In this document: positions 35,763-58,482 of the stretch, piece by piece
Numbering within the stretch: the stretch's first letter is position 1
Layout of the letters: each line of letters begins with the position of its first letter
Assembly (NCBI GenBank): GCA_038065555.1
Contig: JBBTQS010000001.1
Location: 741-64,740 of the forward strand
Origin: Patescibacteria group bacterium
GTDB lineage: Bacteria > Patescibacteriota > Patescibacteriia > Magasanikbacterales > JBBTQS01
DNA: 64,000 bases
Direction: 5' to 3'
The notes under the pieces: generated by a model
The model's database searches: none
The model's input: the letters and a program-made list of their open reading frames with translations, nothing else
What the model was told of the DNA's origin: nothing
Translations under genes and position numbers: made by a program

Positions 35763-35766
35763 GCTT

Positions 35767-36328: not shown

Positions 36329-36351
36329 AACGATGAAGTAAGGACAATTTT

Positions 36352-36579: not shown

Positions 36580-36580
36580 T

Positions 36581-36829: not shown

Positions 36830-36854
36830 AATTTTTATTCTCAATTGTGTCCCT

Positions 36855-37055: not shown

Positions 37056-37096
37056 CAAAGGTGACTCACACTTGTGTTTGGGTGTTGACAAACATC

Positions 37097-37126
37097 TTGC
37101 AACCCAGAGTCGACATGGTGTACAAT
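37097..37126 (+). promoter_or_regulatory. Sigma70-like promoter candidate TTGCAA-N18-TACAAT
   Basis: Seen directly. The predicted TSS is near 37134. Confidence 0.35.
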
Positions 37127-37133
37127 CAATACA

Positions 37134-37316
37134 GATCAGTGTGAATTCAATTCTCTGTTTCTAGCCAGAGAGAGCGTCATTCAATCCAATGCACACGGAT
37201 TGACCATCAAGAGTGCTACCTTGCCGAAACGAAAGTTTCGTCAGGTGCTAGAACCACTGCTGACGGACTGTGAAAGCAGACGTAGGCAGGGTAGACGCTC
37301 TTGGTGGTTTTTATTA
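37134..37316 (+). ncRNA. Candidate structured non-coding RNA (identity unknown)
   Basis: No credible ORF. A promoter-like element lies upstream. Internal hairpins include CGAAAC-GAAA-GTTTCG (GNRA tetraloop), TTCTCTG..CAGAGAG and CGTCAG..CTGACG. A long-range closing stem AGAGCGTC(37172-79)/GACGCTCT(37291-98) is followed by UGGUGGUUUUUAUUAU. The segment GUGAAAGCAGACGUAGGCAG loosely resembles the SRP-RNA helix-8 3' strand GGAAGCAGCCAAGGCAG. Confidence 0.3.
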
Positions 37317-37381
37317 TCTGCTTAGCAAATCAGTTCTCTGCACCAGCTGGTCAATGCTAAGTACCAGATAACGAGACACGT

Positions 37382-37546
37382 ATGACAAAGATTTGTCGTC
37401 CGTGGATCACCTTGCGCAACGGGAAGCGGCTTTACGCATCCCAGCGAGGCAAGCGTGTGTTCTGCTTCTTTGTTGAGGACAAAATCCTCGATAAAAAAGA
37501 AGAACCAGTGGTTACCGCCACTGATCCCGCCATTTAGCGATGGTAC
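37382..37546 (+). CDS. Possible small ORF (54 aa; MTKICRPWITLRNGKRLYASQRGKRVFCFFVEDKILDKKEEPVVTATDPAI)
   Basis: ATG-started, basic N-terminus, ends immediately before an intrinsic terminator. Below the 60-aa track cutoff, so found by manual translation. No SD. Confidence 0.25.
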
Positions 37547-37548
37547 TG

Positions 37549-37578
37549 GAACCCCGAGCAATCGGGGTTTTCAGTTTT
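37549..37578 (+). terminator. Rho-independent terminator
   Basis: CCCCGA-gcaa-TCGGGG followed by TTTTCAGTTTTTA. Confidence 0.6.
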
Positions 37579-37764
37579 TATCACCTCTAGGGCGATATGT
37601 CAATATCATACCATACTCACTTGTGGATAGATTGTTATGTCTTGAGGGGATATGTCCTTTCTGACTGGCAGGTTGTTGAAAAAAACACCACCCCGACCAC
37701 CATCTCCCGCGTGAAGCAGAAGTTGGTGATCGGGGTGAGTTGTTTTTCGTTTGGCTTTCTCGAG

Positions 37765-43714: not shown

Positions 43715-44869
43715 TCAGGCGAGAAGGGAATGGTAGAGTGCGAAGATGGTGTCTGCTGCATTGTCCCACGAGTAGTCCTTCGCACGCGCAGCGCCACGTT
43801 GGACGCGAGACGCGCGTGGAGCATCATCGTGAAGAGAGGAGAGTATGCCATCAATAATGCTCTGTGTCGATGTTGGGTCAACGAAGAGCGCTGCATCATC
43901 CGCCACTTCATGGAATGCGGGAATTGCTGATGCTACCACTGGTGTGTGACAGGCAAATGCCTCCAAGATCGGCAACCCAAATCCTTCGTGCAGAGATGGG
44001 AAGACCAGCAATTCCGCGCACCCATACACAAGTGGCATATGCTCATCCTTGATAAATGGTGCACGAATGACGTGTGAAGTGAGGTGGAGTTGCTCGATGC
44101 ATTTCGTTACTTGTTGACTATACTCAGGGAGATGGTCTCCACCGACAAGAACAAGGGGGAGTTGTACATTGTGCTGTGTGCGCAAGGTTGCGTATGCCTC
44201 GAGCAGTCGGAGTATATTCTTGTGTGGATCGAGTCGGCTGACACACAACAGATACGCTGATGGCAAAGCGTATTCGTGTTGGAGTGTTGCGATGGCTGCC
44301 GCGCGATCGGTGAGCGGACGATACTGCGGATCCACGCCGTTTGGGATCACGTGGATGCGTGATTCTGGGATGTGATAGGTGCTTGCGATTTCTCGCTTGC
44401 CATACGCTGAGACTGCAAGGAGTGCGTCCATGCGACCGTGCATCCATCGATTAGTAATCTGAAACGCTCTCTCACCTGCGCCAATGGCGTGCAAGCTCTT
44501 CATGATGCCTGCTTCGTGTGGCGTTACGACAATCTTGCGACTGTTGGTGAGGAGATAGGAGGGCCACACACGAGGTTGGAGATAATGCACAATGTCGAAT
44601 CGATTGCCTCGCATCCACTCATGGATCCAGAAGAGGCTCTCATTGATCATGGTTCTCCCTACAGGCCATTTGGTCTGAGGAAATCGCATTTCAGGCCACT
44701 GTGTGTACAGAGGATCAGACGTCTTTTCGTGGTGGATGAGTGTGAAATCAAAAGCACTCGAGCCGCGGTCGAGCCGCTCTAGGAATCGTCGTGCTACGAG
44801 TGCTGTTCCACGTGCAGGACGGTTGTCGATGCAACTGGTGACAAGTCCTACACGTATGCGGTGGTTCAT
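43715..44869 (-). CDS. Glycosyltransferase family 4
   Basis: LVFPSLHEGFGLPILEAFACHTPVVAS is a canonical GT4 motif. Confidence 0.85.
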   Translation of the reverse strand: MNHRIRVGLVTSCIDNRPARGTALVARRFLERLDRGSSAFDFTLIHHEKTSDPLYTQWPEMRFPQTKWPVGRTMINESLFWIHEWMRGNRFDIVHYLQPRVWPSYLLTNSRKIVVTPHEAGIMKSLHAIGAGERAFQITNRWMHGRMDALLAVSAYGKREIASTYHIPESRIHVIPNGVDPQYRPLTDRAAAIATLQHEYALPSAYLLCVSRLDPHKNILRLLEAYATLRTQHNVQLPLVLVGGDHLPEYSQQVTKCIEQLHLTSHVIRAPFIKDEHMPLVYGCAELLVFPSLHEGFGLPILEAFACHTPVVASAIPAFHEVADDAALFVDPTSTQSIIDGILSSLHDDAPRASRVQRGAARAKDYSWDNAADTIFALYHSLLA

Positions 44870-46089
44870 GCGGTATGAGATTTCATGAATTCTGCGATCG
44901 TATCCATCAAGTAGGTGAGATGTGCGTCGGTCATACCGTGGTGGCAGCCGATGAGCATCGCCTGTGTGAGGATCGTGTCGGCATTATCAAGTGTTCCGTG
45001 CACGCGGTGCGGAATATTCTGATACGCAGGATGTCGCAAGATGTTACCGGAGAACAGTACTCGAGTCTGAATCTTGCGTGATTCTAGGAAGCGCATGAAT
45101 GTGGATCGGTCGATCGACGATTCCTTGCGAATGAGAACAGGGAAGGCGAGCCAGCGTACATCTGCACCTGGTAATTCACGCGCAGGCATGAAGTGCTCTG
45201 GATACTGGTTCAGGAATGTCTGCAACGTGGTGTAGTTGTGCTTGCGTGTGACGTAGAACTCCTCGAGTCGTTCGAGCTGCACCAGTCCAAATGCTGCCTG
45301 TAAGTCGATTGGCTTGAGGTTGAATCCGAGTTTGGTGAACATGAATTTGCCGTCGTGTGGCTTCTCGTTGAGTGTGTAGGCAAATCGCTTGTCTGGATCT
45401 TCGTCGAAGTGCTCTGGAAGCGCGCGGCCCCAGTCACGCAACACTTTGCCTTCTTCTGCTAACTTCTTGTCCTTGAACATAACCATGCCACCGCCACCTG
45501 CTGCCGTGATGATGTGTGATGCGTAGAAGCTCGTGGTGCTAGCATCTGCGTACATTCCTGTTGGCTCACCATTGATCGTGCCACCAATGGTGTCGCACGA
45601 ATCTTCGATGAGACGCAAGTTGTGACGATCTGCGATTGCGCGCAGTCGGCGCATGTCGTTGAGGTTACCAACAAGATGTGGAATGAAGAGTGCAACCGTC
45701 TTGTCCGTAATTGCTGCTTCGACTGCATCGATATCTACGTTGAATGTGTCGAGTTCAACATCGACAAAAACAGGAACAAGTCCGAGCTGCAACAGGGGGT
45801 TCACTGTAGTCGAAAATGTACATGCGGGCGTGATCACTTCGCCCCCTGGTGGGAAGTTGAACACGTGTGCAGCGATCAAGTTAGCCGATGATCCCGAGTT
45901 CACGAAAAGTCCTGTTTCTTGTCCAAATTTAGCAGCAACTGCAGCCTCGAATTTGCGGCTGTATTCTCCAGGAACGAGCCAGTCTGATCGCAGTGATTCG
46001 TTGACAGCGGCGATTTCGCGCTCGCCGTACACAGCGCGTGAGTACCAGACCCAGTCTGTGCCAGGGGTGAAAGGTGTTTGTTCTGCCAT
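44866..46089 (-). CDS. DegT/DnrJ/EryC1/StrS-family PLP-dependent enzyme, RfbH-like (NDP-hexulose 3-dehydratase/aminotransferase class)
   Basis: 407 aa. Has the DegT-family N-terminus (SDWLVPGEYSRKFEAAVAAKFG) and the LIEDSCDTIGG motif. Length and context resemble RfbH/DdhC. Confidence 0.75.
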   Translation of the reverse strand: MAEQTPFTPGTDWVWYSRAVYGEREIAAVNESLRSDWLVPGEYSRKFEAAVAAKFGQETGLFVNSGSSANLIAAHVFNFPPGGEVITPACTFSTTVNPLLQLGLVPVFVDVELDTFNVDIDAVEAAITDKTVALFIPHLVGNLNDMRRLRAIADRHNLRLIEDSCDTIGGTINGEPTGMYADASTTSFYASHIITAAGGGGMVMFKDKKLAEEGKVLRDWGRALPEHFDEDPDKRFAYTLNEKPHDGKFMFTKLGFNLKPIDLQAAFGLVQLERLEEFYVTRKHNYTTLQTFLNQYPEHFMPARELPGADVRWLAFPVLIRKESSIDRSTFMRFLESRKIQTRVLFSGNILRHPAYQNIPHRVHGTLDNADTILTQAMLIGCHHGMTDAHLTYLMDTIAEFMKSHTA

Positions 46090-46093
46090 ACAG

Positions 46094-47266
46094 TTAGTTG
46101 AGAGAAAGTAATGCGGTGTAGAGACCTTCGGTCTGTTCCATCATGCGGTCGAGCGAATAACGCTCAGTTGCGCGGATGCGAGCTGCGGCGCTCATGCGCG
46201 TCGCGTCTTGGGAGGATTCTACCATTCGGGAGATTTGTGCAGCAAGGTCAGCAGGGTCGTTCTCGTTTGCGAGTAATCCTGTCTTCTCGTGCTCGATGAG
46301 TGACTCAATAAGGGGCACACGAGTCGCCACAATAGGAACGCCTGCAGCTGCGGCTTCGATCACGCTCGTGTTGGGACCGATCCATTGGTTGCCCTTCGCA
46401 TCTCGTGAGAATGTCTGTACGTAGACGTCGCTTGCAGCGAGCAATTCGTACACGTCGGTGCGTGCGCCGAGGAAGTGAATGCGATCTGCGATTCCGAGTG
46501 TCTTGGCTTGTTCGCGCAACTGTGATTCGAGCGGCCCCCAGCCAGCGAGCATGAGATGCGCGCGCGGAACCTGCGCCATCGCTGCAATGAGTTCATCATG
46601 CCCCTTCCACGAAATAAGTCGCGCGGTCATGAGGACTAGTGGTACATCTGTCGGAATGCCGAGCTCTTCGCGCTTCTTCGTGCGGTTAGTGTCTGCATGA
46701 ACCGCTGCGATCTTCGCAACGTCAACGCCTGCAACAATGGTGAAATGTCGGCGGCCTTTGTCCCATTCTTCGCGAGTAAATGGTGCTGACGATCCGCCGT
46801 AATGTTGTTCGATTCCTTCGGTTGCACCAGTCCATGCCTGTGCCAGCGGCAGCGTGAGACGATCGAGCCAGTACACACGCTTGGTGTATGCAACGGGCAA
46901 GTTGCACTGCGTGCTGATGGTGTGTCGAATTCCAGCGATGCGCGCGGCAACGCGACCTACCGTTCCAGCGTAGGGGAGATATGTGTGTACGATTGCTGGT
47001 TTTTCGCGACGCAAGAATGCAACGAGTCTCTTGAACTCATTGCGCGTGAATCGCTGTTCGCCGCCGATGGATGTCACTCGAGCGCCAGTCTGGAGAATTT
47101 CATCCAGAACGGTTTTGGTTTCAGGTGGGAAGATGCGCTCAGATTTGAGGAATACAACGTGGAGCGAGAATTTGGACTTGTCCAGACGCGCCGCAATGTC
47201 GAGAATGATGCGCTGTGCTCCGCCGCGCAGGAGTTCGTTCACGATGATGACAACGGATTTGGGCAT
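46094..47266 (-). CDS. Glycosyltransferase family 4
   Basis: FSRDAKGNQWIGPNTSVIEAAAAGVPIVATR is a GT4 motif region. Confidence 0.8.
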   Translation of the reverse strand: MPKSVVIIVNELLRGGAQRIILDIAARLDKSKFSLHVVFLKSERIFPPETKTVLDEILQTGARVTSIGGEQRFTRNEFKRLVAFLRREKPAIVHTYLPYAGTVGRVAARIAGIRHTISTQCNLPVAYTKRVYWLDRLTLPLAQAWTGATEGIEQHYGGSSAPFTREEWDKGRRHFTIVAGVDVAKIAAVHADTNRTKKREELGIPTDVPLVLMTARLISWKGHDELIAAMAQVPRAHLMLAGWGPLESQLREQAKTLGIADRIHFLGARTDVYELLAASDVYVQTFSRDAKGNQWIGPNTSVIEAAAAGVPIVATRVPLIESLIEHEKTGLLANENDPADLAAQISRMVESSQDATRMSAAARIRATERYSLDRMMEQTEGLYTALLSLN

Positions 47267-47275
47267 AGATTGAAA

Positions 47276-48193
47276 TTAGCGCAACGACTTCACTGCGTCG
47301 GCAATGCCTGTAGCAGTGAGACGATATCGCTCGAGGAAATGGTCTTGCATTCCGACACCTTTCGGGAATTCGTCGGTGATTGCGATGCGTGTGAATGCTG
47401 CGGGAGACACGCCAGCGTCAGCAAGTGCTTCAAGTACCGCGCTACCAAATCCACCGTGCGTAAGATGCTCTTCCACTGTCACGATGCCGCCAGTTTCGCG
47501 AGCGGCACTGATGACTGCGTCTGTGTCGAGCGGCTTCCAGGTGTGCATGCTCACAACGCGGCAGTGAATACCTTCGGCAGCAAGCGAATCTGCAGCCGCA
47601 ATAGCATTGGGCAATTGGCGACCTGTTACCAGAATCGTCGCGTCTTTGCCATCGCGAACTGGGAGTGCGCGGCCCAGTGTCACAGGAACATCAGCTGCGT
47701 GCACCACAGGTTCACCGCGCTTTGCAATGCGCATGTATGCTGGCTTGCCTCTGGTGTACATGGCGCGGGTGAGCGCAGCTACTTCGTGTGGATCGCCAGG
47801 CGAGAGCACTGCCATATTGGGCAAAATGCGCATGATTCCTAGGTCTTCCAGAGGGAAGTGTGTACAGCCAAATGTGCTGTAGCTGAACGTGCTTCCAGAT
47901 CCAATAATGAAGACTGGCAAATCTTGGTACGCAATATCGTTGCGGATTTGTTCGTAGCAGCGCATGGTCGCAAATGTCGCGATCGAGTAGGCAAAAACCT
48001 TCTTGCCAGCGAGCGCAAGTCCCGCTGCAACGCCCATGAGATTCTGCTCGGCGACACCAACATTGAGATACTGGCGTGGAAATTGCTTCATGAAATCCTC
48101 GAACACAGAGTAGCCCAAGTCGCCAGTCAACAAAAAGACGTTGGGATCTTCGGCAGCAAGTTGTGTGAGCGTGCGGACAAATGTTGGGCGCAT
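47276..48193 (-). CDS. Transketolase, C-terminal (pyrimidine-binding) subunit
   Basis: EQNLMGVAAGLALAGKKVF, THFPLEDLGIMRILPNMAV and TVEEHLTHGGFGS. It is the split-TK C-terminal half. Alternative TTG start at 48202. Confidence 0.85.
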   Translation of the reverse strand: MRPTFVRTLTQLAAEDPNVFLLTGDLGYSVFEDFMKQFPRQYLNVGVAEQNLMGVAAGLALAGKKVFAYSIATFATMRCYEQIRNDIAYQDLPVFIIGSGSTFSYSTFGCTHFPLEDLGIMRILPNMAVLSPGDPHEVAALTRAMYTRGKPAYMRIAKRGEPVVHAADVPVTLGRALPVRDGKDATILVTGRQLPNAIAAADSLAAEGIHCRVVSMHTWKPLDTDAVISAARETGGIVTVEEHLTHGGFGSAVLEALADAGVSPAAFTRIAITDEFPKGVGMQDHFLERYRLTATGIADAVKSLR

Positions 48194-48194
48194 A

Positions 48195-49022
48195 TTAACC
48201 AAGTTCAGCTACAGCCGCGGCAAGATCCTCGGGCTTGAGATTTTTGTAATGCCAGTCTACGGTGTTCTCCATGTAGGAGACGCCTTTGCCCTTCACCGTG
48301 TGTGCGATGAGGACGAGCGGCTTGTCAGTGAGTCTGGGAGACTCGAGTGCTGTCACGATTTCGGTGAAGTCGTGGCCATTCACTTCGCGGACTTCCCAAC
48401 CCATCGATTCCCACTTGGTTGTGAAGGGTTCGAGATCAATGACGTCCTTGGTCATGCCAAATCCCTGACTCTTGTTGTAATCCACGAGTGCGATGAGATT
48501 GTTTGCACGCAAATGTCCTGCAAGCATTGCTGCTTCCCAGGTTGATCCTTCGTCGCATTCGCCGTCGCTCAAGACGACGAACGTTCGCCATGGCGCGCTG
48601 TCGTGTCGTGCAGCGAGTGCAAGTCCGAGTCCCATCGGCAGTCCGTGTCCAAGTGCTCCAGAAGTTGCTTCAATTCCTGGCGCAGAACCGTGCACAGGAT
48701 GCACCGCAAGTACGGTGTTGTCCTTTCCGTACACGTCGAGATGTGACGCAGGGAAGAATCCGCGTGTCTCAAGTGTTGCATAGAGTCCAAGTGCGCCGTG
48801 TCCTTTGCTCAGAATACAGCGATCGCGTTGTGGATTCTGAGGTTGCGTCGGATCAATGCGCATGACGCGGAAGTACAGTGCAACGAGAAGGTCAACTGGA
48901 GAGAGCGACGATCCAATGTGGCAGCAACCGCTCTGACTTGCAACCGTCAGGATGCGCGCGCGAATCGTGCGAGCAGTCTCTTGCAACTGCATGATTTCGT
49001 TAGAGGAAAGTGGGGTGTTCAT
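48195..49022 (-). CDS. Transketolase, N-terminal (ThDP-binding) subunit
   Basis: GHIGSSLS, VLSDGECDEGSTWEA and LIALVDYN are ThDP-binding fold motifs. The start could alternatively be the internal ATG at 48992. Confidence 0.85.
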   Translation of the reverse strand: MNTPLSSNEIMQLQETARTIRARILTVASQSGCCHIGSSLSPVDLLVALYFRVMRIDPTQPQNPQRDRCILSKGHGALGLYATLETRGFFPASHLDVYGKDNTVLAVHPVHGSAPGIEATSGALGHGLPMGLGLALAARHDSAPWRTFVVLSDGECDEGSTWEAAMLAGHLRANNLIALVDYNKSQGFGMTKDVIDLEPFTTKWESMGWEVREVNGHDFTEIVTALESPRLTDKPLVLIAHTVKGKGVSYMENTVDWHYKNLKPEDLAAAVAELG

Positions 49023-49935
49023 AAAACCAGGAAAGTGTTCGTGTAATACCAGCTTCGAGTGTGATCTTGGGCGACCACCCGAGGACTTCGCGCGTGTGTG
49101 TCATGTCTGCTTGCCAGAATGGAACATCGGCATTGCGTGCTGCAATTGCACCCACAGCTGTCTTGATCTCTTTGCCACTTACGCGCGCAATGGTGTCCAC
49201 CATTTCGCTAATAGGAATTTGTACTCCAGAGCCGAGATTGAAAATCGCTCCGGCGTGTACGTGTGTGCTCGCGAAGAGCATTGCATCAATAACATCGTCC
49301 ACATGAATGAAATCGCGTGGAGTAGTCGGGTCTGAAATCGGCAACTCTGTGCCTTGCATCGCTGCACGCACTGCTGCAGGAACAAGACGTGTTGGCGCTT
49401 CGTACGCGCCGTAAACAGAGAAGGGTCGCACCGTCACAATCGGCATCTGTGCTTCGCGAGCAAGTCGCTGGCCGTGCAGTGTGGCCCACGCCTTTGCAAC
49501 GCCGTATGCGGTGTGTGGCTCGAGCACCATGTCCTCGCGCATTGGCGCGGATTTGACTCCGTATTCTGATGAGCTGCCAGTGTGGATGATCGCGCGAATA
49601 CTCTCGACCCCACGGCACGCTTCGTAGAGCGCAGCAGTTCCATCAATAATCACGTGACGGATCTGCGTCTCGTCGTTTTGTCCGCGATTGCCGCCGTAGT
49701 GGGCGAGATGGAAGACGCGCTCGGGTGCAACAGACGTAATGATCTCGCGCAAGCGCGCAGCATCCGTGATATCGCATGTGTGGAATGTCACGCGGCCGTC
49801 GAGTTCTGTGTTGCGCGCTGCATTTGCTGAGTCTGGTCGCACGATCGCGTGGACTGTGTCGCCCACAGCCAATAACGCGCGCACAAGATTGGCGCCAATG
49901 AATCCGTGTGCACCGGTAACAATCGACGCTGACAT
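49000..49935 (-). CDS. NAD-dependent sugar epimerase/dehydratase (SDR family)
   Basis: VTGAHGFIGANLVRAL Rossmann start and YGVAKAW catalytic YxxxK. Confidence 0.8.
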   Translation of the reverse strand: MSASIVTGAHGFIGANLVRALLAVGDTVHAIVRPDSANAARNTELDGRVTFHTCDITDAARLREIITSVAPERVFHLAHYGGNRGQNDETQIRHVIIDGTAALYEACRGVESIRAIIHTGSSSEYGVKSAPMREDMVLEPHTAYGVAKAWATLHGQRLAREAQMPIVTVRPFSVYGAYEAPTRLVPAAVRAAMQGTELPISDPTTPRDFIHVDDVIDAMLFASTHVHAGAIFNLGSGVQIPISEMVDTIARVSGKEIKTAVGAIAARNADVPFWQADMTHTREVLGWSPKITLEAGITRTLSWFYEHPTFL

Positions 49936-49951
49936 ACGCGCGCGAGTGAAA

Positions 49952-51037
49952 TTAATGAAGCTCGACTTTGCCCTCAGCTGTCATGATCGGTACATGACGC
50001 ATCCAGACTTTGCGCTCCCACCATGGGCGATTTTGTACATACCACGCGATGGTGCGCTCGAGATTTTCTTCGAATGAGTGCTCTGGCTGCCAGCCGAGGC
50101 GTTCGGTGATCTTTGCAGCATTACCGATGTGCTTGAATACTTGTCCTGGGCGATCGCCGATGTTGATCGTGTGTGATGTGAACTGGAGTTCGCTCGCATT
50201 CTTGCGCAACATCGATGTGATGAGATTCGCGATTTCGAGCACAGAAATTGCTCGACCACTTGCGACGTTGAACACTTCGCCGTTGACCTTGTCATCAGGT
50301 GCAAGAATGATGAGCTCAAGTGCGCGTGCGAGATCCGTTGCATACGTGAAGTCGCGCATGGATTCACCGCGACCATGCACCGTCATTGGTTCTTCCAGAA
50401 GTGCGCTTGTTGCAAAACGTGGAATCAACTTCTCGAGATGTTGGTTCGGACCGAACACGTTGAATGGACGTACAATCACTGCTGGGATTTGGTACGTTGC
50501 AATATAGGAGTAGACGAGACGGTCAGCTCCTGCCTTCGCTGCAGCGTATGGCGATTGTGGCTCGAGAGGATGGACTTCATCCATCGGTTCGTAGCGCGCT
50601 GTTCCGTATACTTCGGAAGTTGAGATGTGGATGAAGCGGCGAATCGTCTTGCGATGGCGCAATACCGCATTGGCGATAGCGCGCGTACCCATGACATCTG
50701 TCTCGAAGAATTCCGCGTCACCGTAGATGGAGCGTGCAACGTGTGTTTCTGCGGCGAAGTGAATGATTACTTCGGACTGCGCAACCAATGTATCGACGAG
50801 GCGCTCGTTGCGCACATCGCCGTACCAAAATGTAAATCGAGAAGACTGGTGGAACTCGTCATCAATATTCTTGATGTCTCCTGCATAGGTGAGGAGATCG
50901 AGCACGTGAAAATGCGCTTCTGGGAATCGATTCCACAGATAGCGCAACGTGTTGCTGCCAATGAATCCCGCACCGCCAGTAATGAGAATCGATCGCGGTG
51001 CTGTTCCAGGGGTAAATCGCTCGTTTTGCTCTGACAT
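49952..51037 (-). CDS. NDP-sugar 4,6-dehydratase (RfbB-like)
   Basis: ITGGAGFIGSN..DLLTYAGD..YAAAKAG matches the dTDP-glucose 4,6-dehydratase pattern (DKLTYAGN-like). Confidence 0.8.
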   Translation of the reverse strand: MSEQNERFTPGTAPRSILITGGAGFIGSNTLRYLWNRFPEAHFHVLDLLTYAGDIKNIDDEFHQSSRFTFWYGDVRNERLVDTLVAQSEVIIHFAAETHVARSIYGDAEFFETDVMGTRAIANAVLRHRKTIRRFIHISTSEVYGTARYEPMDEVHPLEPQSPYAAAKAGADRLVYSYIATYQIPAVIVRPFNVFGPNQHLEKLIPRFATSALLEEPMTVHGRGESMRDFTYATDLARALELIILAPDDKVNGEVFNVASGRAISVLEIANLITSMLRKNASELQFTSHTINIGDRPGQVFKHIGNAAKITERLGWQPEHSFEENLERTIAWYVQNRPWWERKVWMRHVPIMTAEGKVELH

Positions 51038-51112
51038 GCTGTACTTTTATTGATCTGATGGGTATGATAGCCACGGATGTAAAAAAACGCAAGGGTTACA
51101 GACGAATCGACT

Positions 51113-51745
51113 ATGCCAAGTATTTTTCGAACCAAAACACATGACGCGTTGCGTGGCCTCCCGCTGACAGGTCGAGTGGTTGATTTGGGCGGTGAACGCG
51201 GTGATCCGTATCACGCGCTTTTTGCAGGAACATTCACCGTAGAAACAGTGAATCTCAACACCAAGACTGCTCCAGACGTACTCGCTGATCTTGAGGCTCC
51301 ACTTCCATTCAAGGACGAGGAGTATGACGGCGCAATACTCATGAATGTACTCGAGCATGTGCTCGAAGCGCAGCAACTCGTGCGCGAGACGCATCGCGTG
51401 CTCAAGACGGGGAGTGTGGCGTACGCTGTCGTGCCATTTTTGTTTCCCATTCACCCAAGTCCAAAAGATTTTCATCGATTTACTTCTGATGCGCTCGTGC
51501 ATCTCTTTGCGCGCGGCGGATTCAAGAGTGTGAAGGTGCAGGTTATTGGCGGAGGCGTGTTCACGGTGCGCCATCTCCTGATTTCGAGATTGTATCCACG
51601 TCCGTTGGCCGCGGTCATAGAACCGATTGGTGCATGGTGTGCTCAAATGTGTGATCGGATCTTCGCTGCGCTTGCGCGAAGCTCTGGCAAAGGATATCGA
51701 CCAGAGCATTACCCGCTCGGGTATCTTGTCGAAGCAAAGAAATAA
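51113..51745 (+). CDS. Class I SAM-dependent methyltransferase
   Basis: VVDLGGERG and MNVLEHV are methyltransferase motifs I and post-I. Confidence 0.7.
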   Translation: MPSIFRTKTHDALRGLPLTGRVVDLGGERGDPYHALFAGTFTVETVNLNTKTAPDVLADLEAPLPFKDEEYDGAILMNVLEHVLEAQQLVRETHRVLKTGSVAYAVVPFLFPIHPSPKDFHRFTSDALVHLFARGGFKSVKVQVIGGGVFTVRHLLISRLYPRPLAAVIEPIGAWCAQMCDRIFAALARSSGKGYRPEHYPLGYLVEAKK

Positions 51746-51747
51746 CT

Positions 51748-52716
51748 ATGCAGTGTGGCGTTTGTTTGCGTGAGACTGCGTGTACACAACGAGAGACATA
51801 TCGTGAATTTTCGTTGTGGGAATGTGCACAGTGTTCTGGTCAATTCTGGAATCCGATGACCAATCCTGGAGCCGCGTGGTATGAGAAGGACGAACGCTAC
51901 AGTGATCGCAACGCTGCGCCACTGCGCAGACCTGTGCATACGCATCGCGCATTTCTGGACGAGAATCCAGCGCCAGGTGGTCGTGTGCTTGATGTGGGCA
52001 TGGGAACGGGTAATTTTCTCTCAGCAGCAAAGCAAAAGGGATATGAAGTTTGGGGGATTGATTTCGATCGCGACGCTATTGCGGTTGCACGAGAGCAATT
52101 CGGGCTCGAGCATGTGCATGTGGCGTCCCTCGAGCAGTTGCGTGAGCAATTTCCTGACAAACAATTCAACGCGATTACATTGTTTGAAGTGCTCGAGCAT
52201 GTAGAATCTCCGTCGGCGCTCATGCAGTCGATCCACAGCGCGCTTGCTGATGGCGGATATGTGGCAATTAGCGTGCCATATCGTCGTGGTTCGCGTCTTT
52301 TGATGCCAGCAGATTTGCCTCCGCGCCATCTCACGCGTTGGAATCGAGCGGCAATGCGTAATCTATTAGAACAACATGGATTTGAAGTGGTGCGGTTTCG
52401 TTGTTTTGCAGCGTCACTCACGTATGTGGTGACGAAATTTCATTTTTGGACGCGCGGATATCTGAGCTTTGGGTTAGTGAACAAGTTGAAGCGGCGTACG
52501 ATGGCGTCGTCCACTACCGGAGCAGCTGCACCGCAGTCTGCTGGTGCGACATCTGTGCGTCCTGCGCGCAGTGTCAGCGCGCTCTTCATCCTTGCGAAGA
52601 CAAAGGATTACGTATTGTTCACAATCCCTGCGCTTGTGCTCATGGCGTATTTGGCGATGCGCGGTGAATTGCGTATCAGTCTCTACGCACTTGCACGCAA
52701 GAAATCAACCGTATGA
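51748..52716 (+). CDS. Class I SAM-dependent methyltransferase with N-terminal Cys4 zinc ribbon
   Basis: CGVC..CAQC ribbon; VLDVGMGTGNF motif I; FEVLEHV. Confidence 0.75.
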   Translation: MQCGVCLRETACTQRETYREFSLWECAQCSGQFWNPMTNPGAAWYEKDERYSDRNAAPLRRPVHTHRAFLDENPAPGGRVLDVGMGTGNFLSAAKQKGYEVWGIDFDRDAIAVAREQFGLEHVHVASLEQLREQFPDKQFNAITLFEVLEHVESPSALMQSIHSALADGGYVAISVPYRRGSRLLMPADLPPRHLTRWNRAAMRNLLEQHGFEVVRFRCFAASLTYVVTKFHFWTRGYLSFGLVNKLKRRTMASSTTGAAAPQSAGATSVRPARSVSALFILAKTKDYVLFTIPALVLMAYLAMRGELRISLYALARKKSTV

Positions 52717-53981
52717 TGCAAGGTCTTCGACAATGGGCGTACCGGTTGCTGCGACGCACGGAGATCTATTTCAAAACAGATATGGTCTCGCTCACGAAGA
52801 GTGGGTTTTGGCTCGCCGCAGCGCAAGGCGTTGCTGCAGTTACGTCATTTCTGTTGTCGATTGCATTTGCGTATTTCCTTCCACAAGAAGTGTACGGTCA
52901 CTACAAATTCTTTCTCTCGATTGCGGCAATTATCAGCGCCGTATCTCTCACAGGTCTGAGCATCCCAGTGACACAACTAGTTGCACAGGGCAAAGAGCGC
53001 GCGTTGCGCATTGCATTTCGACAGAACATTCGCTGGAGTATTCCACTTATGCTCGTGGCTGCTGCTGGCGTGGTGTATTACCTGCTGCAAGACAATATAT
53101 TGTTGGCGTATGGCGTCGGCGTGATTGGATTGTGCGCGCCATTTATCAATGGTGGCGGACTCTACAGTGCGTACTGGTCGGGCAAATCTGACTTCCGTAC
53201 GTATGCGCTCTATTGGGTGGCGGTCAATAGCACGACAGCACTTGCGATTCTCATGTGCATGTTCCTCACGCACTCTGAGTATGCGCTGGTTACCACGTAC
53301 TTTGTAGTGAGTGCAGTGACAAATATGATTGCGTATCTCATGGCATCGCGCAGCATCAGCGCGCACAAAGCCACAGCTGACGAAGACAAAATTGTTTCGT
53401 ACAGTCTGCATTTGAGCGCGATCAATCTCTTGCAGACAATCACGAGTCAAATCGATCGCATTCTCGTATTCCATTATGTGGGAGCAGCTGGAATGGCAGT
53501 GTACGCATTTGCTATCGCGATTCCAGATCAAGTGCGTGCGGTACTCAAGGGTGCGGCTCGCATCGCATTGCCCAAGTTCGCGACCCGCAGTCTCGATTCG
53601 ATTCAGCAAACGCTCACCGCAAAACTGTTGCGATTCGGTGTTGTAATACTTGTGCTCACGGCACTCTATGTCGTTGCTGCACCGTATATCTTCACGTGGT
53701 TGTTCCCGAAGTATATGGAGTCTGTGCCGTATTCGCAGTTGCTCGCGGCAACGATTATCACAGTGCTTGGATCAATGCCACTGGCTGCGCTACAGGCGCA
53801 TAGCGCAACGCGCGAGCTATACCAGCACGCGATTTTCATGAATATTATCCAGATCGTGCTCACGGTGACGCTCATTGCCAACTACGGACTCATGGGCGCG
53901 GTATGGGCAACGATTGCAACACGATTTATTTCTCTGGTTGTTCCGAGTGTGCTCCTAGCGATTCGAAAAGAGCGCTCATAA
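52713..53981 (+). CDS. wzx: Oligosaccharide flippase (Wzx/MOP superfamily)
   Basis: About 12 predicted TM helices. Family-typical length and composition. Confidence 0.7.
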   Translation: MMQGLRQWAYRLLRRTEIYFKTDMVSLTKSGFWLAAAQGVAAVTSFLLSIAFAYFLPQEVYGHYKFFLSIAAIISAVSLTGLSIPVTQLVAQGKERALRIAFRQNIRWSIPLMLVAAAGVVYYLLQDNILLAYGVGVIGLCAPFINGGGLYSAYWSGKSDFRTYALYWVAVNSTTALAILMCMFLTHSEYALVTTYFVVSAVTNMIAYLMASRSISAHKATADEDKIVSYSLHLSAINLLQTITSQIDRILVFHYVGAAGMAVYAFAIAIPDQVRAVLKGAARIALPKFATRSLDSIQQTLTAKLLRFGVVILVLTALYVVAAPYIFTWLFPKYMESVPYSQLLAATIITVLGSMPLAALQAHSATRELYQHAIFMNIIQIVLTVTLIANYGLMGAVWATIATRFISLVVPSVLLAIRKERS

Positions 53982-54996
53982 ATCGATCGTAGCGCAGCTG
54001 CGTGCGGAAGAGCTCGCGAGCGCGTTCTTGTCGTGCACGCCACGATTCGGGTGTGTGACTTGCGTAGTAATTGGCAACGCGGTCGGGGAGTGTGTGCAGC
54101 TCTGTATAGGGCACGCGCAAGATGACTGATTCGTAGTCGATCACGTCTTCGCGTGGCAATACACAGTCCGTATCAATGAGAATCGGCACGCGCCCGAGCG
54201 CCAATGCTTCGTAGAATCGAACTGAGAAATTGCCGTCACCCTTGGGTGCGAGCACGAAGTCGCTGTTGATCATAGAATCAACATATTCTTTGCGCGCTAC
54301 AACAGGATCCATTGAAATCGTTTTCTTACTCGCTGAGAACGTCTGGCGAATGATGAAATTCGTACGAACATGTGGTGAATTTGCAAGTGCACGCATTGCT
54401 GCACAACGGAAATAGATTCCTTTGCGGTGTACTTCCAAATGCGCATCGCGTGTTATCAATTTTCGCAGCGAAAGAAGGAGGTTCTTTATCTGATATTTCA
54501 CGTAAGCACTGTGTGAAGCAAATCCCGCCCATCCGCAAAAGCTAACGACAGGTGTATCGGATTTCTCACGCAGGTGTACGCCGAATTGCTCGCCGAGGTC
54601 TTCGACCAGAGGCGGCACGATGATTTCATTTGGTTGGCGCAAGTATCCGTACTGTGATCCTTTGCACAGTACGACGTCTGGTACAAAAACATCGTGTGAG
54701 AGGTCGCCACGCGTAAATACCACCACAGGCTTGCCAGCAGCGCGCGCTGCAGCAACCTGTACATCCAGATACGCGCGGATTGCAGGCGTCACGCGTCTGA
54801 TAGGTTGTGGTACGAGCACAATGTCAGCGTCCTCGTAATTCTCTACAAGCGTGAACCCTGTATAGCTGTAATCACTAGGAAGCGCCTGAGTGAAGAGTGT
54901 ATTCTCATGTGCCTGCGCCGCATTGCCGCGTGCTGATTGCACCAAGAATAATTCTGGTGATTCGTCGAACTTGGGCGCAAGCCACACGTGTTTCAT
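53926..54996 (-). CDS. Exostosin-like glycosyltransferase (GT47-like)
   Basis: FVLAPKGDGNFSVRFYEALALGRVPILIDTD matches the exostosin C-terminal motif (PRGDG..R..EAL..G.IPVI). ATG at 54996; the track ORF starts at GTG 55002. Confidence 0.7.
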   Translation of the reverse strand: MKHVWLAPKFDESPELFLVQSARGNAAQAHENTLFTQALPSDYSYTGFTLVENYEDADIVLVPQPIRRVTPAIRAYLDVQVAAARAAGKPVVVFTRGDLSHDVFVPDVVLCKGSQYGYLRQPNEIIVPPLVEDLGEQFGVHLREKSDTPVVSFCGWAGFASHSAYVKYQIKNLLLSLRKLITRDAHLEVHRKGIYFRCAAMRALANSPHVRTNFIIRQTFSASKKTISMDPVVARKEYVDSMINSDFVLAPKGDGNFSVRFYEALALGRVPILIDTDCVLPREDVIDYESVILRVPYTELHTLPDRVANYYASHTPESWRARQERARELFRTQLRYDRFMSALFESLGAHSEQPEK

Positions 54997-55069
54997 ATGC
55001 ACCTATCCTACCGTGGACCGACCCGTTCTTGCAAAAAGCATCTTTTTCGCGGCATACTACCCAAAACCT

Positions 55070-56668
55070 ATGTACCACCATCTGAAATCGCTTTTTGGGT
55101 CCACTCGTTTGGATCGCATTGCACTTGCGCTCATTGGCATCGCGTTTGCCATTCGTCTGATCATCGCTTGTTTGCCTGTTACAGCGCTTGCGGTGTGGTT
55201 TGTTCCTGACGATTCGTTCTATTATTTCAAAATCAGTCAGCATGTTGCGACTGGCGTTGGGTCGACATTTGATGGCGAACATCTGACCAACGGATACCAT
55301 CCGCTCTGGATGCTTATCGTCGCGGGCAGTATGGCAATCTTTGGCGGGCTTGGTGAAATGGCGCCAGTACATGCAGCACTCATTCTCAGCGCGATTCTCG
55401 ATACAGCTACGCTTGTGTTGGTGTATGCCATTGCGCGCAAGGTATTTGCGCATCCCGCGCCGCGAATTGCTGTGCTCGCTCTCGTAGCGCTGAGTCCGGT
55501 GCAAATTGGTTGGGCGGTGAATGGACTCGAGACGAGTCTTGCGGGATTGCTCGCTGTCACTCTTGCAGCATTCCCGATTTTTTATGGTGCTGGTCGCTGG
55601 CCGCTTCGCCGACTCATTATCTGGGGCGTACTTGGTGGCCTCATGATTCTTGCGCGTACTGATTACGGTCTCTATCCGTTTTTGCTCTCGACATGGTATC
55701 TGTGGCGCAACCGAACGGAATTCATGCGTACCGCGCTCGCACTCGCGCTTCCAGCAATTGCAGTTGTCCTTCCGTGGGTACTCTGGAGCTGGTCAGCTGT
55801 TGGAACACCTGTGCAGGAGAGTGGTCTTGCGCTGACACACACCAATCGCGAACTCTTCTTCTACAAGCCGCGTGACGTGGGGACACTCATTCTCTGGTCC
55901 ACATATCAGTTCTTGTTGGCGCTCAAGATGGCGATCGAACAGACAGGTGTCGCAGCCCTTACTATCGCCACAGCGCTCGTTGTTGCGGTGCGTGTGACTC
56001 TGCGTCGTGCGTATCTCTCACAGCTGCGTGCAGCAATTGCAACAGATACAGCGCAAGTTGCGTGGGTGATCGCTGGAGCATCGCTCTTACTCATCTTTGT
56101 GCACGGTGCACTACGTTGGACACCACGTGATTGGTACTTCATCGCGCCTGCGATACTCATGACATTTCTCATGGTTGCAGGATTGCGAAGTCTCTTGGAA
56201 TCAGCACCACGTCGCACACTTGCAATGCTCGGAGTGATTGCCGTTGCATTGTTCATACTCACCGCTGTCGAGATCTATCCCAAGCATCCCGCTGCCAGAG
56301 ACATGGTCGCAACTGCGTACTGGTTGCGTGAGCATACGCCAGCCGACGCACGCATCGCTGCATTTAACAGTGGCATCTACGGCTATCTTTCGCAGCGCTA
56401 TGTACTCAACAGCGATGGGCTCGTGAGTCACGACACATTCCGCGCGATTCGCAATCGTGAGTTACTCGCATTCTGGCAGCGCACAGGGATCACGCATTTC
56501 CTCGACTTCGATATTGCGCGCACCTATCGCTACCGCACATTCTTCGGTGTGCCAGAAATCGAGCGCTACCTCAATGAAGTGACAACGCGATCAGCACCTG
56601 ACAGCGGATATCATGGTTCACAATTGCGTCTTTACACTGTGGACTACGCGCCACCGATGATCCGTTGA
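55070..56668 (+). CDS. Large polytopic membrane protein, GT-C-like putative glycosyltransferase
   Basis: More than 10 TM helices. DDSFYYF loop motif near the N-terminus. The C-terminal soluble domain resembles the product of the window's first ORF. Confidence 0.7.
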   Translation: MYHHLKSLFGSTRLDRIALALIGIAFAIRLIIACLPVTALAVWFVPDDSFYYFKISQHVATGVGSTFDGEHLTNGYHPLWMLIVAGSMAIFGGLGEMAPVHAALILSAILDTATLVLVYAIARKVFAHPAPRIAVLALVALSPVQIGWAVNGLETSLAGLLAVTLAAFPIFYGAGRWPLRRLIIWGVLGGLMILARTDYGLYPFLLSTWYLWRNRTEFMRTALALALPAIAVVLPWVLWSWSAVGTPVQESGLALTHTNRELFFYKPRDVGTLILWSTYQFLLALKMAIEQTGVAALTIATALVVAVRVTLRRAYLSQLRAAIATDTAQVAWVIAGASLLLIFVHGALRWTPRDWYFIAPAILMTFLMVAGLRSLLESAPRRTLAMLGVIAVALFILTAVEIYPKHPAARDMVATAYWLREHTPADARIAAFNSGIYGYLSQRYVLNSDGLVSHDTFRAIRNRELLAFWQRTGITHFLDFDIARTYRYRTFFGVPEIERYLNEVTTRSAPDSGYHGSQLRLYTVDYAPPMIR

Positions 56669-56709
56669 CCCGTCCCAGACCTTCTGGTACGATTCGGGCA
56701 CACAAATAT

Positions 56710-57426
56710 ATGGAGAAGCTGGCTGTTTCGGTAATTGTTCCGGTAATGAATGAAACGATCTCGTTGCGCAAGACCGTCCGCATTCTTGTTGCCGAAAACG
56801 CTCCGTCTATTCACGAGATTCTCATTGCAGTCTCGCCCAAGTTCACCACACCAGAGAGTCGCGCCGTGATCAGTGATCTCCAGAAGGAGTATAAGCACAT
56901 CCGCGTTGTGGAGCAGCAAAAACCATATCTGGGCGGTGCACTCCAAGACACGTTCGAAGTGGCCACAGGAACGCATTTCCTCCTCATGGCATCAGACCTC
57001 GAAACCAATCCGTCGCACGTGAAGCATCTCATCGCACGCATGCGCACGGGGAACGTCGATATTGTCGCAACAACGCGTTGGTCCAAGCGCGGCGGGTTCC
57101 GTGGGTACAATCCTGTGAAGTGGCTGCTCAACTGGGTGTTCCAGAAGATGGTTGCTGTACTTTACGGCGCACGCCTGACTGATCTCACGTTTGGGTTCCG
57201 TCTCTATCGCCGTGAAGCCCTCCAGGGATTTCATTGGACTGAGTTGCGCCACCCATTCCTTCTCGAATGTATTCTCAAGCCGCTGCGCGCAGGATTCACG
57301 GTGACGGAGATTCCTAGTGACTGGACTGCGCGTACCGAAGGTGTTTCGCAGAACACGTTCCTTGCGAATTTTGCGTATGTGAAGACCGCGTGGCGCATCC
57401 GTTTCGCGCCGCGCAAATCAATATAA
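56710..57426 (+). CDS. Glycosyltransferase family 2 (polyprenol-phosphate sugar synthase-like)
   Basis: VSVIVPVMNE start and DLET (DxD-like) motif. DPM1-like length. Confidence 0.8.
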   Translation: MEKLAVSVIVPVMNETISLRKTVRILVAENAPSIHEILIAVSPKFTTPESRAVISDLQKEYKHIRVVEQQKPYLGGALQDTFEVATGTHFLLMASDLETNPSHVKHLIARMRTGNVDIVATTRWSKRGGFRGYNPVKWLLNWVFQKMVAVLYGARLTDLTFGFRLYRREALQGFHWTELRHPFLLECILKPLRAGFTVTEIPSDWTARTEGVSQNTFLANFAYVKTAWRIRFAPRKSI

Positions 57427-57429
57427 TGT

Positions 57430-58482
57430 ATGGACAAGAAGCCAGCACTCGTTACCGGTGGATGCGGATTTGTAGGACGACACCTCGTTCGCGCGCTTTT
57501 GGAGCGTGGCGATTCGATTTATATTATTGATAACCTCTCCACGGGCAAGCATCCAGATCAGTGGCTCGGTGGTGACAAGTTGTCTGATGCCGATGGACGA
57601 CTTGAGTATCGCGTAGGGGAACAGACAGTGACGTTCATTCGCGCTGATCTCTTGTCTTACTTGCATGCGCGTGTTGACGGCGGTGTTGTGGATGAGCTGC
57701 CAGCATTTGGCGATGTGTTCCATCTCGCATCTATTGTTGGTGGTCGCGCGCTGATCGATGGTGATCCGATGCGTGTGGCAACAGATCTCGGTATCGACGC
57801 GATCTTCTTCCTCTGGGCAACGCGTCGCAAGGACAAGATTGACCGATTGCTTTACGCGAGCTCGAGCGCTGCATATCCAACACAGCTCCAAGCCGAAGGA
57901 AATGTCATCAGACTCCAGGAGCCGATGATTACATTTGATGGTACGACGCTCGGTCAGCCAGATATGACATACGGTTGGAGCAAACTCACCGGCGAATACC
58001 TCGCCACCATCGCCGCGCGCCAGTACGGCATGTCTGTTGCATGTGTGCGACCATTTTCCGGCTACGGCGAAGATCAGGACCCGAGCTACCCAGTTCCAGC
58101 TATTGCGCTGCGTGTTGCGCGCCGCGAGAATCCAATGACCGTGTGGGGGACAGGCGAGCAAGGCCGCGACTTCATCCACATTGATGACTGCGTTGCTTTC
58201 ATGCTCTACATTCTCGATCACGTGCATGATGGTCGTGGAGTGAATATCGGCACTGGTGTGCTCACGAGCTTCAATCAGCTCATCGCGCTCCTCTCGCGCA
58301 TCGAGGGTTACTCTGCAGAGATCCAGCAACTGCTCGACAAGCCAGTCGGCGTGCACAATCGTGTGTGCGATCCAGTAGTCATGCAGTGGCTCGGCTGGAA
58401 ACCAAAAATTACTATCGAAGAAGGAATGCGTCGCGTGCTTGCACATGCGCATGTTCGAATTACTGACATCAACGCACTATGA
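57430..58482 (+). CDS. NAD-dependent epimerase/dehydratase (UDP-sugar decarboxylase/dehydratase-like)
   Basis: LVTGGCGFVGRHLVRAL; YGWSKLTGE (YxxxK). Confidence 0.8.
   Translation: MDKKPALVTGGCGFVGRHLVRALLERGDSIYIIDNLSTGKHPDQWLGGDKLSDADGRLEYRVGEQTVTFIRADLLSYLHARVDGGVVDELPAFGDVFHLASIVGGRALIDGDPMRVATDLGIDAIFFLWATRRKDKIDRLLYASSSAAYPTQLQAEGNVIRLQEPMITFDGTTLGQPDMTYGWSKLTGEYLATIAARQYGMSVACVRPFSGYGEDQDPSYPVPAIALRVARRENPMTVWGTGEQGRDFIHIDDCVAFMLYILDHVHDGRGVNIGTGVLTSFNQLIALLSRIEGYSAEIQQLLDKPVGVHNRVCDPVVMQWLGWKPKITIEEGMRRVLAHAHVRITDINAL

Follow-up and report, generated by a model that had tools for sequence, protein, structure and literature searches.

The cassette and its genes

We examined a 64,000-nucleotide stretch of DNA from a Patescibacteria group bacterium (assembly GCA_038065555.1, contig JBBTQS010000001.1, positions 741 to 64,740 of the forward strand), called the window as a whole, and focused on a split transketolase (TK) that lies among sugar-nucleotide genes and may take part in the synthesis of a branched-chain sugar. 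The TK belongs to a tightly packed run of minus-strand genes, hereafter the cassette, which covers 51037-44866 and continues with two more glycosyltransferases. Its order along that strand is an RmlB-like short-chain dehydrogenase/reductase (SDR), a GalE-like SDR, the N-terminal TK subunit (TK-N), the C-terminal TK subunit (TK-C), a GT4 glycosyltransferase, an RfbH-like protein and the two glycosyltransferases. An earlier note, made from the sequence alone, had named a 4,6-dehydratase, an epimerase/reductase, a split transketolase and an RfbH/DegT enzyme here, and family profile matches recovered all of them on the minus strand where that note had placed them. The genes are given below, where NDP stands for nucleoside diphosphate, ThDP for thiamine diphosphate, PMP for pyridoxamine 5'-phosphate, and L numbers for loci of relatives.

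49952-51037, minus strand: RmlB-like, predicted NDP-hexose 4,6-dehydratase, 361 aa (TIGR01181, E=7e-91)
49000-49935, minus strand: GalE/MoeE5-like extended SDR, 311 aa (Epimerase PF01370, E=8e-48)
48195-49022, minus strand: transketolase N-terminal (ThDP diphosphate-binding) subunit, TK-N, 275 aa (PF00456, E=1e-40)
47276-48193, minus strand: transketolase pyrimidine-binding and C-terminal subunit, TK-C, 305 aa (PF02779, E=6e-30; PF02780, E=6e-27)
46094-47266, minus strand: GT4 glycosyltransferase, 390 aa (PF00534, E=8e-32)
44866-46089, minus strand: RfbH/E1-like, predicted PMP-dependent NDP-4-keto-6-deoxyhexose 3-dehydratase, 407 aa (DegT family, E=8e-91; NCBIfam RfbH, E=1e-115)
43715-44869, minus strand: GT4 glycosyltransferase, 384 aa (PF00534, E=3e-30), conserved in L001, L003, L005 and L011
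42666-43769, minus strand: GT1-family glycosyltransferase, last of the co-directional run (PF13692, E=2e-13), conserved in L001 and L003

The stop of the 311-aa SDR gene and the start of TK-N overlap by 23 nt, the true ATG start of TK-C lies at 48193, one base past the TK-N stop, and the start of the 384-aa GT4 gene overlaps the stop of the RfbH-like gene. The ThDP enzyme of the window is built of Transketolase_N, Transket_pyr and Transketolase_C domains and not of those of the decarboxylase/acetohydroxyacid synthase (AHAS) type (TPP_enzyme_N/M/C), so that it falls outside the YerE family. The 390-aa GT4, whose orthologues stand at the equivalent position in L003, L005, L009, L010 and L011 with 43-57% identity, is a candidate for the transfer of the modified sugar. 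The earlier note had stated that no nucleotidyltransferase for the initial sugar lies in the window, and this held over the 64 kb, as a motif scan for sugar nucleotidyltransferases gave none and tblastn with five different nucleotidyltransferases gave nothing better than E=0.46.

Active sites of the split transketolase and the putative 3-dehydratase

For both TK subunits, the closest characterised relative was the split TK of Carboxydothermus hydrogenoformans (TK-N versus 6YAK chain A, E=2e-71; TK-C versus 6YAJ, 2e-62), and TK-C scored 214 bits against the split TK and ~53 bits against pyruvate dehydrogenase (PDH) E1 beta. On the model NF004559, whose cut-off is 488, TK-N reached 252.9 bits and TK-C 202.9 bits, each subunit spanning half of the model. 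The ThDP motif of TK-N reads SDG...DYN where the canonical form is GDG...N, such that the Asp and the Asn are kept and the first Gly is replaced by Ser. TK-N also keeps the counterparts of human His37, His77, His110 and His258, the first three being invariant or nearly so among 82 family members and the last being present in 65 of the 82. In TK-C, the cofactor-activating Glu ('AEQN') and the His equivalent to E. coli His473 are kept.

The residues that contact the acceptor told another story. The TK-C motif 'GSGSTFSYSTFGCTHFPLED' stands in place of the canonical 'ATHAGLTVGEDGASHQAIED', with 'GSGS...STFG' where canonical TK has 'THAG...GEDG'. By alignment to 6YAJ, the phosphate-binding His (human His416, E. 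coli His461) is replaced by Gly103, and the Asp that binds the C2 hydroxyl of the acceptor (human Asp424, E. coli Asp469) by Phe111. Both replacements are invariant among the relatives of the cassette, and non-canonical residues were found at both positions in ~140 of the 150 nearest 50%-identity cluster representatives, taken from a search that yielded 2010 such representatives at E<=1e-30. Judged by these residues, the variant TK is a large, distinct subfamily whose acceptor site appears remodelled and whose donor and cofactor sites appear intact. With the residues that read an aldose phosphate lost and the donor machinery kept, the pattern is consistent with an enzyme that has exchanged this acceptor for a nucleotide-linked ketone.

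The RfbH-like protein had RfbH (NF011936) as its best NCBIfam match, with 386.8 bits, which is under the equivalog cut-off of 423. Compared with known structures, it matched Yersinia E1 (PDB 3BCX) at E=2e-87 and ColD at ~1e-51, and aminotransferases more weakly; the corresponding bit scores were 297 for E1/RfbH, 179 for ColD and 136 at most for aminotransferases. Its segment 'SFYASHIIT' aligned with 'SFYPAHHIT' of E1, which puts a His at the position of E1 His220, marked by the H220K mutant 3BB8. Aminotransferases carry their Schiff-base Lys at this position. Since a His stands where aminotransferases have that Lys, the protein is expected to be a PMP-dependent dehydrase and not a transaminase. 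The earlier note had taken it for an RfbH-class enzyme distinct from simple aminotransferases, a view that both the scores and the His bear out.

The same note had singled out the [2Fe-2S] Cys motif of E1 dehydrases, and here the expectation failed. Three of the four E1 cluster cysteines, namely the loop cysteines C251, C253 and C261, are missing, such that the motif C-X57-C-X1-C-X7-C is not found, and the E1 loop 'RDCYCAPGCDNTCKKRF' reads 'RALPEHFDEDPDKRF', with no Cys. The protein is hence not a canonical E1. Moreover, a Pfam scan found no ferredoxin-reductase-type protein that could stand for E3 (RfbI/AscD) among the open reading frames (ORFs) of the surrounding glycan cluster. Because the cluster cysteines are missing and no E3-type reductase accompanies the gene, the enzyme is probably ColD-like in mechanism, working with neither Fe-S cluster nor reductase. 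The catalytic His is there and the cluster ligands are not, and the sequence is nearer to E1 than to ColD.

Relatives of the cassette and the proposed pathway

The order SDR361-SDR311-TKN-TKC-GT4-RfbH-like-GT4 recurs in contigs from metagenomes and metagenome-assembled genomes (MAGs), with TK identities of 54-64% (L003, L005, L009, L011, L027). As this gene order recurs at TK identities of only 58-64% (L003, L005, L009, L011), the arrangement is not a chance juxtaposition. A genome scan, with one genome per species chosen on TK-C alone and seeded with the motifs of the variant family, yielded 80 loci from Patescibacteria, DPANN archaea, Acidobacteriota, Myxococcota, Omnitrophota, Chloroflexota, Bradyrhizobium, Microcystis, Paenibacillus and Clostridium. 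Its counts describe the companions of variant TKs, and the variant TK-C motif was in all 80 loci, as seeded. A His-type 3-dehydratase was found within 10 kb of the TK pair at 33 loci (17 with the E1 Cys motif and 16 without), a Lys-type DegT aminotransferase near it at 16, and an extended SDR at 59; any of these three was present at 65 of the 80 loci, and the 15 loci with no such partner were mostly on short contigs. The signature of an RfbG-type CDP-glucose 4,6-dehydratase accompanied the pair at 20 loci and an RfbF-type cytidylyltransferase at 14, rfbF and/or rfbG being present at 28 of the 80.

Three cultured carriers have the variant TK beside genes of the rfb type. In Microcystis aeruginosa LEGE 91341, RfbF, RfbG and RfbH all score over the NCBIfam equivalog cut-offs and are followed by an SDR, an FkbM methyltransferase, TK-N, TK-C and a polyprenol-phosphate GT2. 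On plasmid pHY1 of Methylovirgula sp. HY1, the operon reads rfbF-rfbG-SDR-rfbH-TKN-TKC, and its TK-C carries the variant motif. In Paenibacillus cellulosilyticus, rfbF-rfbG-methyltransferase is followed by an SDR::TK-N fusion, TK-C and an O-methyltransferase of the TylF type. At three loci of the family that were checked for it, no ThDP enzyme of the YerE/AHAS type turned up.

The gene most closely tied to the TK is the SDR. The best PDB matches of the 311-aa SDR were MoeE5 and UDP-glucose 4-epimerases, and its homologue lies immediately upstream of TK-N in 24 of the 82 TK pairs; at loci that lack the SDR, the genes directly upstream of TK-N are heterogeneous. A natural SDR::TK-N fusion of 635 aa is encoded on plasmid NZ_CP054609.1 of P. 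cellulosilyticus KACC 14175 (L090, 7100-9007), with an SDR311-like domain at residues 17-359 and TK-N at residues 373-629; its annotation mentions nothing beyond 'SDR family NAD(P)-dependent oxidoreductase'. The representative set held further fusions, of TK-C with a methyltransferase (P0213) and of TK-C, TK-N and SDR (P0245). We propose that the 311-aa SDR is the ketoreductase of the new branch, or else a partner of the TK.

Some relatives departed from this picture. Two variant TK-N/TK-C pairs lie within 10 kb of each other in L045 (Wildermuthbacteria), L073 (a MAG labelled 'Gammaproteobacteria') and L084 (a Microgenomates MAG), which suggests that specificity diversified within a single glycan locus. 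In Streptomyces parvulus pSPA1 (L091), the TK pair follows a DegT gene in a non-ribosomal peptide synthetase (NRPS) cluster with BtrH-like, RimK-like and ArgB/ArgC genes, and on plasmid p5 of Azospirillum argentinense Az39 (L088) it is located between B12-binding radical-SAM proteins, a kinase and a methyltransferase. The substrates of the TK family are probably not uniform. In Bradyrhizobium sp. 21 (L014, NZ_JADPJG010000002.1), SDR-TKN-TKC stands near lipid A acyltransferase-like and sulfotransferase-family genes, with no rfbF, rfbG or rfbH. The O-antigens of bradyrhizobia contain unusual higher-carbon sugars, to which this triplet may be linked.

With a confidence somewhat above even, we favour a reading in which the cassette would install a C2 branch at C4 and then reduce the side chain, giving a C-branched 3,6-dideoxyhexose, activated by a nucleotide and destined for a surface glycan. 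It draws on the identities of the genes, on their active-site residues and fusions, and on conserved synteny; from these we infer every chemical step, the nucleotide, the C2 donor and the order of steps 3 and 4. First, NDP-glucose, whose nucleotidyltransferase would be encoded elsewhere, would be converted into NDP-4-keto-6-deoxyglucose by the 361-aa RmlB-like SDR. Second, the RfbH-like PMP enzyme would remove the C3 hydroxyl to give NDP-3,6-dideoxy-4-ketohexose, by a ColD-like chemistry of amination from glutamate, dehydration and enamine hydrolysis. Third, the split TK-like ThDP enzyme would take the role of YerE and add a C2 unit to the C4 ketone, generating a tertiary alcohol. The unit may be dihydroxyethyl (from a ketose phosphate or hydroxypyruvate) or hydroxyethyl (from pyruvate). 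Dihydroxyethyl is the unit carried by transketolases and the one proposed for miharamycin, and DXS, the next closest TK relative, uses pyruvate; the conserved TK histidines do not discriminate between dihydroxyethyl and a pyruvate-derived donor. Fourth, the translationally coupled 311-aa SDR would reduce the side-chain ketone, which is the role of YerF. Fifth, methyltransferases may modify the sugar, and its transfer would fall to the embedded GT4 enzymes. The RmlB-like dehydratase in the clade of the window suggests dTDP or UDP as the nucleotide; unlike this clade, many relatives pair the TK with the CDP-specific RfbF and RfbG. A yersiniose-like route, with a 4-keto-6-deoxyhexose, C3 deoxygenation and C2 branching by a ThDP enzyme, had been put forward in the earlier note, and family context and active sites lend support to it.

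Several observations weigh against the branching reading, and three other explanations have to be considered along with them. To begin with, the TK subunits are ~50% identical to the Carboxydothermus enzyme, which is an active canonical split TK. A possibility was that the pair is an ordinary pentose-phosphate transketolase that happens to lie in a glycan cluster: split TKs are active in some bacteria (6YAK/6YAJ), the ThDP and donor-site residues are intact, Patescibacteria genomes are small, and NCBI names a near-identical protein just 'transketolase'. No second transketolase or pentose-phosphate gene was found in the window, 64 kb being too short to settle this point for the genome. However, the phosphate-binding His and the Asp for the acceptor C2 hydroxyl are replaced and the replacements are fixed across the clade, the gene pair is translationally coupled to the SDR and occurs in fusions, and two pairs are found at some loci (L045, L073, L084). 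Besides, the sugar-nucleotide neighbourhood is kept across Patescibacteria, DPANN archaea, Alphaproteobacteria, Cyanobacteria and Firmicutes, and Microcystis, Bradyrhizobium and Paenibacillus presumably need and possess a canonical tkt. We therefore regard a housekeeping TK as very improbable.

TK-C also retains the Arg/Ser/Arg that serve as substrate-phosphate ligands in canonical TKs and would suit a sugar-phosphate substrate too, and, with the nucleotidyltransferase not in the window, the nucleotide of the sugar is not fixed by the locus and the entry of the pathway is undefined. Both points would also fit a TK that carries out a pathway-dedicated, canonical or near-canonical sugar-phosphate reaction and supplies an unusual ketose or heptulose phosphate precursor to be activated and incorporated later. 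Yet no kinase, isomerase or heptose-type (GmhA/HddA/HddC-like) gene turned up among the ORFs of the cluster, the family associates with 3-dehydratases and rfbF/rfbG, which are makers of NDP-ketosugars, and the SDR::TK-N fusion ties the TK to an SDR of the nucleotide-sugar type. Such a precursor role seems quite unlikely to us. Under the branching reading, one may speculate that the retained arginines bind the nucleotide diphosphate.

It is also conceivable that the cassette makes an unbranched 3,6-dideoxyhexose, the 311-aa SDR being its C4 ketoreductase (like abequose/paratose synthase) and the TK doing another job, such as handling a non-sugar substituent or extending a chain at an aldehyde. 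A 4,6-dehydratase, a 3-dehydratase and an SDR reductase would suffice for such a sugar, and TK relatives beside NRPS genes (L091) and B12-radical-SAM genes (L088) are in line with other jobs for the TK. But the tightest coupling of the TK is with the SDR, by overlap and, in Paenibacillus, by fusion, which is hard to explain if the two catalyse unrelated steps, and the Methylovirgula rfbF-rfbG-SDR-rfbH-TKN-TKC operon holds no other substrate-generating genes. On balance, we find an unbranched product unlikely. The branching reading, for its part, has to accommodate relatives such as L007, Yanofskybacteria, that have SDR-TKN-TKC with no 3-dehydratase; the acceptor of the TK is therefore not always a 3,6-dideoxy sugar.

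The first enzyme of the proposed route also calls for reservation. The 361-aa SDR had dTDP-glucose 4,6-dehydratases as best PDB matches (2HUN, E=3e-63; 6BI4; 1BXK; ~40% identity) and keeps GGAGFIG and the Tyr/Lys motif 'YAAAK', but its score of 304.7 bits on TIGR01181 is under the equivalog cut-off of 365.1, and it reads 'STSEVYG' for 'STDEVYG' of RmlB, that is, a Ser for the catalytic Asp. The resulting Thr-Ser-Glu triad, fixed in all clade members (62-96% identity), is as in GDP-mannose dehydratase and UXS. Since Thr-Ser-Glu also occurs in GDP-mannose 4,6-dehydratase, a 4,6-dehydratase activity of the 361-aa SDR is still plausible. What the earlier note had said of a 4,6-dehydratase thus stands as regards the presence of an RmlB-like gene and is weakened as regards the catalytic triad and the score. 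A decarboxylase of the UXS/ArnA type, as the 'STSEVYG' motif could also indicate, was considered and set aside, with 79.9 bits versus 304.7 for RmlB and top PDB matches that are all RmlB.

More broadly, and with a confidence somewhat short of even, we suggest that the variant TKs, with SDG and with the acceptor His and Asp lost, could be a third independent ThDP solution for branching nucleotide ketosugars, beside YerE and the PDH-E1-like enzymes. Many 'transketolase' calls in the candidate phyla radiation (CPR) and DPANN would then be misassigned, and as yet undescribed 4-C-(hydroxyacetyl or dihydroxyethyl)-3,6-dideoxyhexoses would be present on cell surfaces among the Patescibacteria, DPANN archaea, cyanobacteria, rhizobia and Firmicutes through which the family is spread. 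A further point against the branching reading is that the Streptomyces split-TK precedent for it is a proposal only, as a 2025 review relates it (PMC12247030).

The surrounding glycan cluster

The cassette is part of a glycan-assembly cluster that spans ~38.4-59.6 kb of the window and holds six GT4/GT1 glycosyltransferases, a GT47-like enzyme, a GT2, a GT-C, a Wzx flippase, methyltransferases and several SDRs. Outside the glycan genes, the window has typical housekeeping and surface-protein genes (FtsA, FtsZ, HisRS, LexA, pyruvate kinase, giant pilin-associated proteins). Scans for promoters and terminators gave site counts no higher than in shuffled controls. Next to the cassette lie three plus-strand genes, SAM standing for S-adenosylmethionine:

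51113-51745, plus strand: methyltransferase-like protein, 210 aa (PF08241, E=7e-9), divergent from the cassette
51748-52716, plus strand: Class I SAM methyltransferase, 322 aa (PF13489, E=2e-30), kept beside the cassette in relatives
52713-53981, plus strand: Wzx-type polysaccharide flippase, 422 aa (PF13440 and PF01943)

The 322-aa methyltransferase is a candidate O-methylase of the sugar. The gene for the 210-aa protein was also called and conserved in L001, L003, L010 and L011. An ORF of 220 aa on the other strand (51047-51709, minus) was considered as a cassette gene and rejected, as it has no family match and the relatives keep the overlapping 51113-51745 gene; it is probably spurious.

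Adjoining the cassette, a four-gene module (54890-59585, plus strand), kept in L001, L003, L010 and L011, encodes a GT-C (PMT_2-like, 592 aa), a GT2 like dolichyl-phosphate hexose transferases, a 350-aa SDR and a protein of the RGP/STELLO family. In plants, members of this family are UDP-arabinopyranose mutases. The module may be a lipid-phosphate-linked (arabino)furanose-type pathway, and we saw no description of such a module for CPR bacteria. Just ahead of the glycan cluster, in 35658-37700, lie a tRNA-Asp (35658-35732) and, after it, ~2 kb of lower G+C (0.46 versus 0.52-0.55 around) with short ORFs only; this region may mark the edge of an island or the scar of an integration. Farther away, two giant ORFs of 2259 and 3056 aa (1250-8029 and 12740-21910) flank a 625-aa protein with T4SS-pilin and Big_5 domains (10850-12727); large surface proteins of this kind are typical of CPR bacteria, and the adjoining glycosylation machinery may act on them. 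Finally, a 404-aa ORF (34139-35353, plus strand) that matches the cysteine-rich 'Dictyostelium repeat' (PF00526) sits where the window has its only high-G+C stretch (0.60).

Known systems for sugar branching

ThDP-dependent branching of deoxysugars is known for enzymes of the YerE and PDH-E1 types, and for the transketolase type it is no more than a proposal, made for a few Streptomyces antibiotics. What is new here is that a proposed branch point of the transketolase type is placed in a primary surface-glycan locus, that its active-site signature is defined, and that the family is very widely distributed; we found no literature description of transketolase-type genes in rfb-type or CPR glycan loci. 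The parallel with split transketolase genes of the Coxiella phase-I LPS locus, drawn in the earlier note, was not confirmed by the literature searched. If the branching reading is true, the branched-chain sugars of primary cell-envelope glycans would have a third route that is widespread, new sugars would await discovery, and the enzymes would be biocatalysts for tertiary alcohols bearing a hydroxylated C2 arm. It would also call for caution in CPR and DPANN metabolic reconstructions that take 'transketolase' genes as evidence of a pentose phosphate pathway. Cultured carriers of rfb-type TK operons are available in Methylovirgula sp. HY1, Paenibacillus cellulosilyticus KACC 14175 and Microcystis aeruginosa LEGE 91341.

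A 2025 review distinguishes three ThDP solutions for sugar branching, namely YerE-like decarboxylase-family enzymes in lipopolysaccharide, PDH-E1-like alpha-KADH2 enzymes in actinomycete antibiotics, and, as a proposal only, split-gene transketolases (PMC12247030). The nearest pathway to the one proposed is that of CDP-yersiniose A in Yersinia pseudotuberculosis (RfbF/DdhA, RfbG/DdhB, E1/E3, YerE, YerF), in which a 4,6-dehydratase and a PMP-dependent 3-dehydrase make a 3,6-dideoxy-4-ketohexose, a ThDP enzyme adds C2 at the C4 ketone and a reductase finishes the branch (PMC12247030). Moreover, distant relatives of the TK are found inside true rfbF-rfbG-rfbH operons. The family takes the place that YerE has in the yersiniose pathway, right behind the enzymes for the 3,6-dideoxy-4-ketohexose, and the SDR to which it is coupled could act as YerF. 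In contrast, YerE is a single-polypeptide enzyme of the decarboxylase/AHAS family whereas that of the window is a two-subunit member of the transketolase family, the dehydratase of the window is RmlB-like and not RfbG-like, its 3-dehydrase has no Fe-S cluster, and neither E3 nor a cytidylyltransferase is present. Like the window enzyme, the alpha-KADH2 enzymes (aldgamycin, avilamycin, kibdelomycin) depend on ThDP and have two subunits, and they put a C2 branch on NDP-ketosugars (PMC12247030), the role proposed here for the TK, but they belong to another superfamily, use pyruvate and come from actinomycete antibiotic clusters.

Closer in family are the split-gene TKs of miharamycin and amipurimycin, for which the transfer of a hydroxyacetyl unit onto a keto sugar has been proposed; 13 further Streptomycete clusters with split-gene TKs are reported, none of them, by the review's account, characterised in vitro (Krug et al. 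2024, as cited in PMC12247030). As described there, these likewise are split transketolase-family enzymes with a proposed transfer to a keto sugar, but they lie in Streptomycete secondary-metabolite clusters, whereas ours lies in a surface-glycan locus of an uncultured Patescibacteria bacterium and belongs to a family found across many phyla of bacteria and archaea. The TK pair beside a DegT gene on the Streptomyces parvulus plasmid keeps the His and lacks the Asp.

As for the 3-dehydrase, E1 (RfbH/AscC/DdhC) and ColD share with the window protein the DegT fold and a catalytic His for the Schiff-base Lys, E1 being the closest. E1 differs in holding a [2Fe-2S] cluster through C-X57-C-X1-C-X7-C and in needing the reductase E3, whereas the window protein lacks three of those four cysteines; ColD has no cluster either, but is more distant in sequence (179 versus 297 bits) and acts on a GDP-sugar. 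Lastly, the Carboxydothermus hydrogenoformans split TK (6YAK/6YAJ) shares with the window enzyme its two-gene architecture, ~50% identity and the cofactor-binding residues. It departs from it in 'THAG...GEDG..H' versus 'GSGS...STFG..H' in the window, in GDG versus SDG, in H-P versus H-I, and in genomic context.

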